A DNA stretch of 45,248 nt from a virus (Duplodnaviria > Heunggongvirae > Uroviricota > Caudoviricetes), in IMG/VR virus record IMGVR_UViG_2529293151_000014; one strand, written 5' to 3'. The first letter of the stretch is position 1. Every line of letters starts with the position of its first letter. Below are positions 24,001-27,000 of this stretch, in pieces. A program made the position numbers.

Positions 24001-27000
24001 TGAATGGTTTGGTGAATATTCGGTACTCCCTCCCATGCAATGGCGTGCCGTCTATGGAGACACCGCACAGAAAACAAAAGAGGTCAACGACTTCTCAGTA
24101 TTCGAGCACTGGGGGCTTGGTACTGACGGGTACATCTATCTGATCGATATGATTCGCGGTAAATGGGAGGCCGATGAATTACAACGCCGTGCTGTTGCAT
24201 TCTGGGAAAAGTGCAAAACTCTGAAGAATGGGCCGCTTCGCCACATGGCGATAGAGGACAAGTCATCTGGCACAGGCCTGATACAGAACATCCGAAAAAA
24301 AGCGATATGCCCCATCAAAGCAATTCAGCGCGATAAGGATAAGTATACGCGACTGATGGACGTACAGGGTTATATCGAGTCCGGTTACATCAAGTTGCCC
24401 AGCAGCGCACCATTCATCAACGACTTCCTCGTTGAGATGGAAGCCATTAATCCTGATTTCAATACGCACGACGACCAGCTTGATCCGATGATGGATGCCA
24501 TCGATGAGATGAAAAATGGCAATGGTCCGTTACGTATATCTGAAGACCTTTTGAGGCTCGCATAGTGTTTAATTTTTTGAGAAAGAAAAAATCTGAGCCT
24601 CAGAAAGAAGAGGCGAAACAGCCAATGTCTCTGGCGAATGTTCTTGCGATTATTAACGAACATGAGCGAATTAAAAATGAAGGCGAGGCATTGCGTAGAA
24701 TTGAGAGATACGTACCCCCGCCAGGCGTTATTCCTGAACATATTGGGGAGTCAGCTCTGGCGATGGACTCCACGCCGTACAGTTACCTTAACTCAGCAAA
24801 CATCACTTCATATGGCTACGGTGGATTTCCTGGCTACCCATATCTGTCTCAACTTGCTCAGTTGCCGGAGTATCGCAAGATTACTGGCACGATAGCAGAA
24901 GAGATGACGCGAAAATGGATTGAGCTGAAGCATGTAGGTAAAGACGATGGTGACGACAAGGCCGATAAGATTCGTCAGCTTGACGACGCATTAAAGCGTT
25001 TCAGAGTGCGATAGAAGTTTCGCGAGGCGGCGGAACATGATGGTTACTTCGGGCGCGGACAGATTTATATCGACGTGAAGACGCCAAGCGGTAACTCAGC
25101 CTGGCTGGTTCCCGACGAACTGGATAAGAAGCTCTATATCAGCCCGCGCAAGATTACCAAAGGAAGCCTGAATGGTTTCCGTGTTATCGAGGCCATGTGG
25201 ACATACCCTGGTGTGTATAACGCTGATAACCCTCTAAGCCCTGACTTCTTCAATCCATCTGAATGGTATGTCATGGGGCGCACGGTTCACGCCAGTCGCA
25301 TGTTGACAATGATTTCTCGCCAGGTGCCAGACATTCTCAAAGCGGCGTACAACTTCGGCGGCTTGTCGCTTAGTCAGATGGCAGAGCCATATGTGCAAAA
25401 CTGGCTGAGAACACGTGACAGCGTTAGCGATCTGGTTCATTCGTTTGTGGTCTACGGGCTGAAGACGAACATGCAGAATGCCTTGTCTGGAATTGCAGAC
25501 TCAAACCTGTTTATGCGTGCCGAGCTCTTCAATAAGGTTCGCGACAATCGCGGAATGTTCCTTATTGATAAGGATGCGGAAGAATTCTTCCAGTTTGTGA
25601 CAAGTCTGTCCGGAGTCGATGCTCTTCAGGCGCAAGCACAGGAACAAATGGCATCGGTATCAAGCATTCCCCTGGTTAAGCTCCTTGGCATCACTCCTAA
25701 CGGGCTAAACGCGTCATCTGATGGAGAAATCCGCGTCTTCTATGACTCAATCCACGCCATGCAGGAGAATCTGTTCAGAGTACCACTGAAAACAGTACTG
25801 GATGTTATCCAGTTAAACGAATTTGGCGAGATTGACCCTGACATTGATTTTGAATTCCTGCCGCTGTACGAGCTTACAGAAGCAGAGAAAGCCGAGATCA
25901 TGAAACATCAGTCTGAGGCTGATAAGAACTATGCCGAAGCTGGCGTGTTCGACCTTGATGCAATAAGAAGCATGCGCCAGTCGGATAAGGCCAGCCCATA
26001 CCACATGATGGAATCTGAATATGACGAAGAAGAGCACGAAAACGAGTCCGTCGAAGAAGGATTCGAAGACCCGGAAAACCCTTCGTCCAGTCAGAGCTAA
26101 TGCCGGAGTTCATGAGTGGTATCGCTCTGAGCTTCTCAAACTGGTTAGGGAGATGGATAAGTCATACCGATACTGGCTTGAGGGCGCATACAAAAACAAC
26201 ATGGCGATGGATTCCAGTCCCGCGAATGAGTTAAAGCGCAGATTGTCCAGACTAGGCAAGCAGTGGGAGCATAAATTCAATGAACTGGCTAAGAAACTGG
26301 CTGATCGCTTTGTTGATAAGACACTGCGCAACACCGACGTTTCGTTACACTCAGCGTTAAAGGCTGGCGGATTTACCGTTAAGTTCACAATGAATGACGA
26401 GCTTAAGAACGTGATGCAGGCTGTCGTTAACGAGAACGTCAACCTGATTAAATCCATACCTGAACACTATCACACACAGGTTGAGACGATAGTCATGCAG
26501 TCTGTCAGCCGTGGTCGTGACCTTGGCTATCTCACTGATGAACTGGTTAAGCGATATGGCATTACACGCAGACGCGCTGAGACGATTGCACGCGATCAGA
26601 ACAACAAAGCTACAGCGGTAATTCAGTCTGAACGGCAGAAGAAGTTAGGAATCACCAAAGGAATCTGGCGTCACTCACACGCCGGGAAGCAGCCAAGGCC
26701 ATCCCATGTGAAAGCTGACGGTAAAGAGTTCGACCTCGATAAAGGGCTGTATCTCGATGGTGAATGGGTGCTGCCGGGAGAGGCTATCAACTGCCGTTGT
26801 ACGTGGTCTCCTGTTATCCCTGGGATAGATAGAAAATGATTGAGGTTTTATGGTCTCTGGGCTTAGTGTTGATTTTTGGTTGTTTAATGATTGCACTACT
26901 GAAAATAGCTATGCCCAAGAGGAAATAATGGCCGCTACTGCGGCTTTTTTATTGCCTGCCGAAAGGTAAAAGCATGCCATTACGCAAAGTTAAAGGCGAC

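Follow-up and report, generated by a model that had tools for sequence, protein, structure and literature searches.

The in-frame amber codon that divides the portal gene of this prophage is very probably a wrong base, T in place of G at position 25012, in the consensus of the Illumina/Celera draft AQBD01000111.1. The T is private to that draft, in which at least 10 such substitutions are counted; for this particular base we infer an error, a reading favored because private changes of a technical type are just as dense in the sibling assemblies. The codon in the organism would most likely be GAG (Glu150), the prophage encoding an ordinary intact portal of 511 amino acids after the terminase large subunit gene (terL). 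The original prediction had offered three readings, including (i) a nonsense-inactivated, cryptic or defective prophage, (ii) an amber allele dependent on a suppressor host, and (iii) a sequencing error; the last of these is now favored, and the other two are left unsupported. The features and substitutions located in the window, that is, the whole stretch of 45,248 nucleotides analyzed, are collected in Table 1.

Table 1. Positions in the window of the portal frame, its fragments, the upstream terL gene, and the ten substitutions private to the window (public allele > window allele).
Feature	Position	Strand	Description
Portal gene	24565..26100	+	511 codons, GTG start; single ORF once base 25012 = G
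In-frame TAG, codon 150	25012..25014	+	Base 25012 is T here, G (GAG, Glu) in all other copies examined
N-terminal fragment ORF	24565..25014	+	149 aa, made by the TAG
C-terminal fragment ORF	25075..26100	+	341 aa from GTG; GenBank ENF55459.1, locus tag ECP03048166_1111
terL	23045..24565	+	Terminase_6N and Terminase_6C matches; 506-aa product called in relatives
Private G>T	3425		R>S, minus-strand DUF7739 gene 3246-3545
Private A>C	4078		W>G, minus-strand gene 3542-4153
Private G>T	8696		Intergenic
Private G>T	15152	+	D>Y, PAPS-reductase-like gene 14717-15649
Private C>A	19562	+	Synonymous (Leu), holin gene 19377-19700
Private G>T	25012	+	GAG>TAG, portal codon 150
Private G>T	25371	+	Portal CTG>CTT, synonymous (Leu); G in 22/22 informative relatives
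Private G>T	33924	+	D>Y, gene 33879-34286; variant ENF55470.1 only in P0304816.6
Private G>T	38364	+	R>L, gene 37949-38725
Private G>T	39450	+	G>W, baseplate-region gene 38997-39812; variant ENF55476.1 only in P0304816.6

The portal frame and its neighborhood

A single frame holds the GTG at 24565, the TAG at 25012-25014, the GTG at 25075, and the TAA at 26098-26100, and translation of 24565-26100 yields 511 codons with codon 150 as the sole internal stop, the sequence at 25006-25017 reading GTG CGA TAG AAG, followed by TTT. The translation bears out the earlier proposal of two same-frame ORFs split by this TAG and nothing else. The sequence equally agrees with the description of the second ORF as one that has a GTG start only and lacks a Shine-Dalgarno element: the 60 nt separating both portal ORFs are open in frame, no in-frame ATG lies ahead of the GTG at 25075, and no Shine-Dalgarno-like purine run is seen by eye directly 5' of it. 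The further claim of a portal frame of about 511 codons right after terL also holds, the frame carrying a PF06381 domain with terminase domains encoded upstream, and the terL stop overlapping the portal GTG start by 1 base. At the protein level, exact look-up of the 149-aa N-terminal fragment in public protein collections returned no record, and the C-terminal ENF55459.1 is known from one contig only, that of E. coli P0304816.6, and is absent from the Logan re-assemblies.

The intact homologue matches PF06381 (Phage_portal_3, formerly DUF1073) at residues 92-454, with an E value of 5e-92 and a score of 308.7 bits against a gathering cutoff of 33.8, covering positions 2-356 of the 357 in the profile. 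The N-terminal piece aligns to positions 2-53 of the 357, below the gathering score, and the C-terminal piece to positions 81-356; the TAG cuts inside a single portal domain, both ORFs representing pieces of one PF06381 domain. A phmmer search against PDB sequences retrieves the gp19 portal of the Pseudomonas phage E217 (8fvh, 9b41), with an alignment that runs unbroken over residues 83-490 and crosses codon 150, together with the Pam3 portal (3e-11). The window portal is a remote relative of E217 gp19 (E about 1e-32); nevertheless, both proteins comprise about 500 amino acids and belong to the same PF06381 family. In NCBIfam, the window-family portal scores under the cutoff of TIGR01555. Some close homologues in RefSeq bear the name 'anti-CBASS protein Acb1 family protein', to which the evidence lends no support.

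The gene order of the late region comprises terS, terL, portal, a Mu-F-like protein, DUF2213, a cement protein, and the major capsid protein. The portal gene is located directly 3' of terL and 5' of the Mu-F-like head morphogenesis gene, as in the PF06381/E217 type, and E217-type tail proteins are also encoded nearby, the neighbor genes matching E217-type tail families. The element is a lambdoid-early, myovirus-late mosaic prophage, inserted between torS and torT, with its modules complete from the integrase through the tail-fiber chaperone.

Codon 150 in homologous loci

A lone substitution is untestable against chance; what can be tested is its presence in other copies. The region is present in 20 complete E. 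coli genomes at 96-99% identity, with one CDS of 1536 nt annotated, and codon 150 is GAG in the 3 RefSeq prophages checked. When the site was searched by its exact context, leaving the variable base as N, 13 IMG/VR and 3 metagenome contigs were retrieved, all with G, and base 25012 is G in 40/40 other fetched loci sharing the 40-nt context, a count that includes several overlapping pieces of the same records. In a local tblastn across all loci, a stop at codon 150 occurs in 0/85 of the portal alignments spanning residues 140-160; E occupies this position in all relatives with at least 50% identity and is replaced by D, K, or R below that level. A single portal ORF is called in each related contig listed. 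The portal region has no megablast match in the INPHARED phage collection, and neither allele turned up when the GTDB species-representative genomes were scanned for the exact pattern.

The ancestral codon 150 is GAG (Glu), and two separate genes are, judging from these homologues, not the norm. The expectation that intact homologues would span the junction with a sense codon is confirmed, the codon being GAG and not the CAG suggested beforehand; the opposite outcome, in which two genes of these sizes would be usual at this position, is not seen, the relatives keeping one ORF. Against 5 relatives, the portal shows 146 synonymous and 28 non-synonymous codon differences, a total from non-independent comparisons, and the family is under strong purifying selection. 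Outside the TAG, the portal differs from its closest copies by one synonymous base only.

Private substitutions in the window, its flanks, and sibling assemblies

The window corresponds to GenBank AQBD01000111.1:182448-227695 (E. coli P0304816.6, GCA_000357845.2), identical over the 29.8 kb compared, within a contig of 266,864 bp belonging to a draft that Celera Assembler produced from HiSeq reads. When compared with IMGVR_UViG_2534681700_000005 (45,248 bp), it shows exactly 10 base differences in 1607-45248 (43.6 kb), which, read from the public copy to the window, comprise eight G>T on the plus strand, one C>A, and one A>C. The window allele is the derived one at all 8 sites with informative relatives. 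Two other accounts of these differences were rejected: (i) K/M ambiguity codes resolved differently in the two copies, since the G/T direction is consistent, the A/C direction is not, and GenBank itself has T; and (ii) the window as an altered copy of IMGVR_UViG_2534681700_000005, since it is identical to the GenBank contig of another assembly. An intact and otherwise identical portal is found in P0304816.11, P0304816.13, and others.

Within the likely genes, the ten changes amount to 6 missense, 1 nonsense, and 2 synonymous substitutions, with 1 intergenic. If every possible coding-strand G>T in the late genes were counted, 76% would be missense, 10.5% nonsense, and 13.5% synonymous; the private changes look unselected, their predicted coding effects matching this random expectation and not an evolutionary one. 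The amber change occupies the context GTGCGA[G>T]AGAAG, outside the GGT>GGG error motif, and the G>T class as a whole (window and the sibling assembly AQAT) displays no recognized motif, 7 of the 12 changes following T.

On the same contig, the host flanks of the prophage add 3 candidates to the private G>T changes of this strand, namely torS Q>K, torA G>W, and torC GAG>TAG at codon 295, with directions that rest on more distant references. In AQBD01000111.1, the 390-aa torC product is broken into calls of 294 aa and 81 aa. Flank positions 86 and 214 were rejected as private changes, being common to the siblings and so natural. The substitution excess probably extends beyond the prophage, and, with candidate G>T changes in the host flanks as well, a mutational process specific to the prophage was set aside.

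Window proteins free of private changes, looked up by exact match, led to near-identical prophages on contigs of about 266 kb whose accession prefixes are neighbors (AQBC, AQAU, AQAX, AQBB, AQAW, AQBG, and AQAT), and also to AQEZ; all were compared position by position. From the protein names P0304816.11/.13, the adjacent prefixes, and the near-identical sizes, the AQA*/AQB* contigs look like colonies of the same patient. Base 25012 is T only in AQBD01000111.1, and G in AQBC, AQAW, AQBG, AQAT, AQEZ, and the IMG copy. All seven siblings carry private changes of their own, at densities of 0.1-0.7 per kb and with one strand-specific type dominant in each, including (i) A>C in AQBC (10 of 11 private changes; 0.25 per kb) and AQBB (6 of 9; 0.40 per kb), (ii) T>G in AQAU (7 of 10; 0.45 per kb), AQAX (4 of 7; 0.31 per kb), AQBG (6 of 7; 0.74 per kb), and AQAW (a single change; 0.11 per kb), and (iii) G>T in AQAT (all 4; 0.32 per kb). 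The density of the window itself, with 8 G>T among its 10 private changes, is about 0.22-0.23 per kb, and AQEZ, the IMG copy, and the Logan re-assembly have 0 private changes each (0 per kb). Of the 37 sibling changes that are T>G or A>C, 30 fall in GGT or its reverse complement ACC, and two sites recur, 19493 in AQAX and AQAW and 23053 in AQAU and AQBB. AQAT has G>T stops of its own, at terL codon 265 (GAA>TAA) and portal codon 87 (GGA>TGA).

The substitution GGT>GGG is a systematic Illumina error, specific to read direction and replicable by site (Meacham et al. 2011, PMC3295828). The changes described here resemble it in being private to single assemblies of one clone, in being strand-specific, in comprising only G/T and A/C substitution classes, and in the recurrence of the same site across assemblies, but the amber change differs, being a G>T in CGA-G-AGA and not a T>G at GGT. 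Because most of the sibling changes sit in the Illumina GGT/ACC motif, read errors evidently reach the consensus in this data set. Because the G>T changes lie outside GGT, a technical cause for those of the window and AQAT is argued by analogy with the siblings and not from the motif itself.

A re-assembly from public reads provides an independent view of part of the region. The Logan contig SRR446839_451 (9,014 bp, identical in 18 samples that may not include the P0304816.6 run) corresponds to window positions 11185-20198, and has the consensus allele at the window-private sites 15152 (G) and 19562 (C) and at all sibling-private sites within its span, 25012 lying outside it. No other Logan contig was returned for the variable sites of that range, a second one, of 3.1 kb, spanning no variable site, and the window-specific protein variants have no Logan source on record.

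Origin and consequences of the stop codon

A real and very recent G>T at 25012 in colony P0304816.6, for instance in a G:C>T:A hypermutator of the mutY/mutM type, is improbable; it would cut the portal at residue 149, abolish procapsid formation and packaging, and leave a freshly defective prophage. The G:C>T:A class is the signature of real 8-oxoG mutagenesis and of mutY/mutM-type mutators, and 9 of the 10 private changes fall in this class, the one that arises from unrepaired 8-oxoG. Their unselected coding spectrum is that expected of recent changes in a silent prophage, and the allele stands in the deposited GenBank record, with the C-terminal fragment annotated as a protein. At coverage above 200x, random read errors should not enter a consensus. 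Judging from the format of the isolate name, P0304816.6 belongs to a study of multiple colonies per diarrhea patient (Dhaka, 2011), sequenced on the HiSeq2000 and assembled with Celera Assembler; the mean coverage of >200x reported there (PMC4462620) speaks against random consensus errors and counts against the error reading. However, seven other assemblies are equally dense in private changes, mostly in the GGT/ACC Illumina motif, and the changes of the window are themselves strand-biased, G>T outnumbering C>A by 8:1 on one strand, or 11:1 with the three flank candidates. The siblings display opposite biases (A>C vs T>G) at one and the same locus, which replication-linked mutagenesis cannot produce. 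Extended to the whole genome, a density of about 0.23 per kb would mean that roughly 1,100 mutations separate P0304816.6 from colonies of the same stool, and the Logan re-assemblies are free of any private allele within their span.

The more specific scenario, in which P0304816.6 is a G:C>T:A hypermutator arisen in or co-infecting one diarrhea patient, with AQAT as a second case, and has just lost portal and torC via GAG>TAG, would capture a within-host mutator in the act of domesticating a prophage, and is likewise improbable. AQAT would have to be an independent mutator that had also struck terL and portal, and it is not credible that one clone gave rise to seven or eight hypermutators independently among its colonies. 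A functional amber, with the portal made by read-through, whether programmed or in a suppressor host, so that the allele is conditional-lethal or yields two products, is extremely unlikely. The stop is indeed TAG, the least used stop in E. coli, and the frame is open beyond it, but TAG rather than another stop is found here because GAG becomes TAG by a one-step G>T, and the same step has apparently produced a second GAG>TAG in torC, as well as TAA and TGA in AQAT. ARAGORN finds no tRNA gene within the window, the stop falls inside one folded portal domain, and it is kept in 0/40 homologous loci; this reading, and with it the suppressor-dependent allele proposed earlier, is effectively refuted because the stop is absent from all relatives. 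Hardly any weight can be given to an old cryptic remnant with the portal as a decaying pseudogene, for which the stop itself is the sum of the evidence. Save for the 10 private bases, an intact copy is matched letter for letter over the 43.6 kb compared, all modules from integrase to tail-fiber chaperone are present, and the divergence of the portal among relatives is overwhelmingly synonymous, as expected under purifying selection; the stop is private to one draft and common to no relative, and the rest of the portal is near-identical to other copies, all of which speaks against the defective or cryptic prophage of the original prediction.

With a wrong consensus base as the preferred reading, the split portal would have no counterpart in the biology of the prophage, whose portal gene is most likely normal. 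A genuine stop would divide the portal domain between products of 149 aa and 341 aa and, from the established role of portals, assembly and packaging would be lost, which would simply amount to a null mutation in an essential head gene. Such a GAG>TAG in an essential morphogenesis gene would resemble the laboratory amber mutants of phage head genes, which are conditional-lethal and rescued by suppressors. Unlike those mutants, this one belongs to a prophage in the draft genome of a clinical isolate, bears no sign of selection or design, and involves a base that is probably absent from the DNA.

Beyond this gene, private substitution errors seem to run at roughly 0.1-0.7 per kb in this region of the compared 2012-13 ETEC drafts (AQA*/AQB*). 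Pseudogene counts, calls of prophage 'defectiveness', and within-patient SNP analyses made from these assemblies would be inflated. Such errors make spurious stops, split genes, and unique variants, which are then copied to protein databases, as with ENF55459.1, ENF55470.1, and ENF55476.1.

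Private base changes in the assembly and its siblings

Besides the amber in the portal gene, the assembly that carries the window contains nine single-base changes private to it, i.e., absent from the other copies of the same prophage, comprising seven G>T, one C>A and one A>C (see the table), with the effects on other prophage genes including R>S, W>G, D>Y (twice), R>L and G>W. These nine further changes are probably errors, as with the amber. In the host part of the same contig, AQBD01000111.1, codon 295 of torC reads TAG in place of GAG (about position 230854; 19411-19413 in L144, the host-flank locus), and the gene is called in two pieces of 294 and 81 aa; candidate private G>T changes are also present in torS and torA (Q>K and G>W, respectively).

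Private changes extend to the sibling assemblies, the near-identical prophages on related GenBank contigs. Across the compared loci (L161-L164, L169, L176 and L153; window-equivalent span 1607-46312), private changes, T>G within GGT or A>C within ACC, occur in every sibling GenBank assembly with a density of 0.1-0.7 per kb, and at sites 19493 and 23053 the same private change occurs in two sibling assemblies each. In AQBC, a private change shortens the cII call to 45 aa versus 97 aa, and AQAT01000027.1 (loci L185 and L189) comprises its own G>T stops, TAA at codon 265 of terL and TGA at codon 87 of the portal gene.

Portal alleles, naming and the downstream gene

A 498-aa portal allele, observed in several unrelated assemblies, is a natural shorter form, with a stop at codon 499 and the acidic tail lacking its last 13 residues (comparison loci L167, L168, L171 and L172). 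Some close RefSeq homologues of the portal protein (L002 and L003; window-equivalent 24565-26100) are labelled 'anti-CBASS protein Acb1 family protein' by the NCBI annotation, a name not supported by the Pfam and PDB matches, which identify a portal; the label looks like an annotation carry-over from the DUF1073 family. The last 80 nt of the portal gene also belong to the longest open reading frame of the Mu-F-like head morphogenesis gene; other annotations report a 228-aa form, starting at about 26153, and a few the 272-aa form.

Coordinates of the features, in window or window-equivalent positions
Feature	Position	Strand	Length
HNH_3 gene	4113-4691	-	
DnaB-type replicative helicase gene	11607-14000	+	797 aa
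NUMOD4 + HNH_3 gene	18628-19149	+	
T5orf172 gene	20623-21282	+	
HNH_3 gene	22002-22499	+	
Mu-F-like head morphogenesis gene, longest ORF	26021-26839	+	272 aa
SLT-domain (tape-measure-like) tail gene	34498-36312		
Arc-like repressor gene	36381-36701	-	
Bro-N/P22-type antirepressor gene	37037-37915	+	
AQAT01000027.1 stop sites	23837 (terL), 24823 (portal)		
Private single-base changes	3425, 4078, 8696, 15152, 19562, 25371, 33924, 38364, 39450		

Helicase insertion, nuclease-type genes and the tail block

The DnaB-type replicative helicase displays an insertion of ~337 aa (approximately residues 204-540), located immediately C-terminal of the Walker A motif GMGK; the inserted segment probably represents an intein that contains a homing endonuclease. 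The insertion ends in ...VTHN followed by Thr, its first residue is neither Cys nor Ser, and the match to LAGLIDADG is faint; 458-aa helicase alleles without the intein are frequent among related IMG/VR contigs. Several free-standing nuclease-type genes, listed in the table, are also found in the prophage, and one HNH gene immediately precedes terS.

In the tail block, the Arc-like repressor and Bro-N/P22-type antirepressor genes are flanked by the SLT-domain tail gene and baseplate genes, an arrangement reminiscent of an immI-like module of P22 set into a myovirus tail block; relatives differ from one another at this spot.
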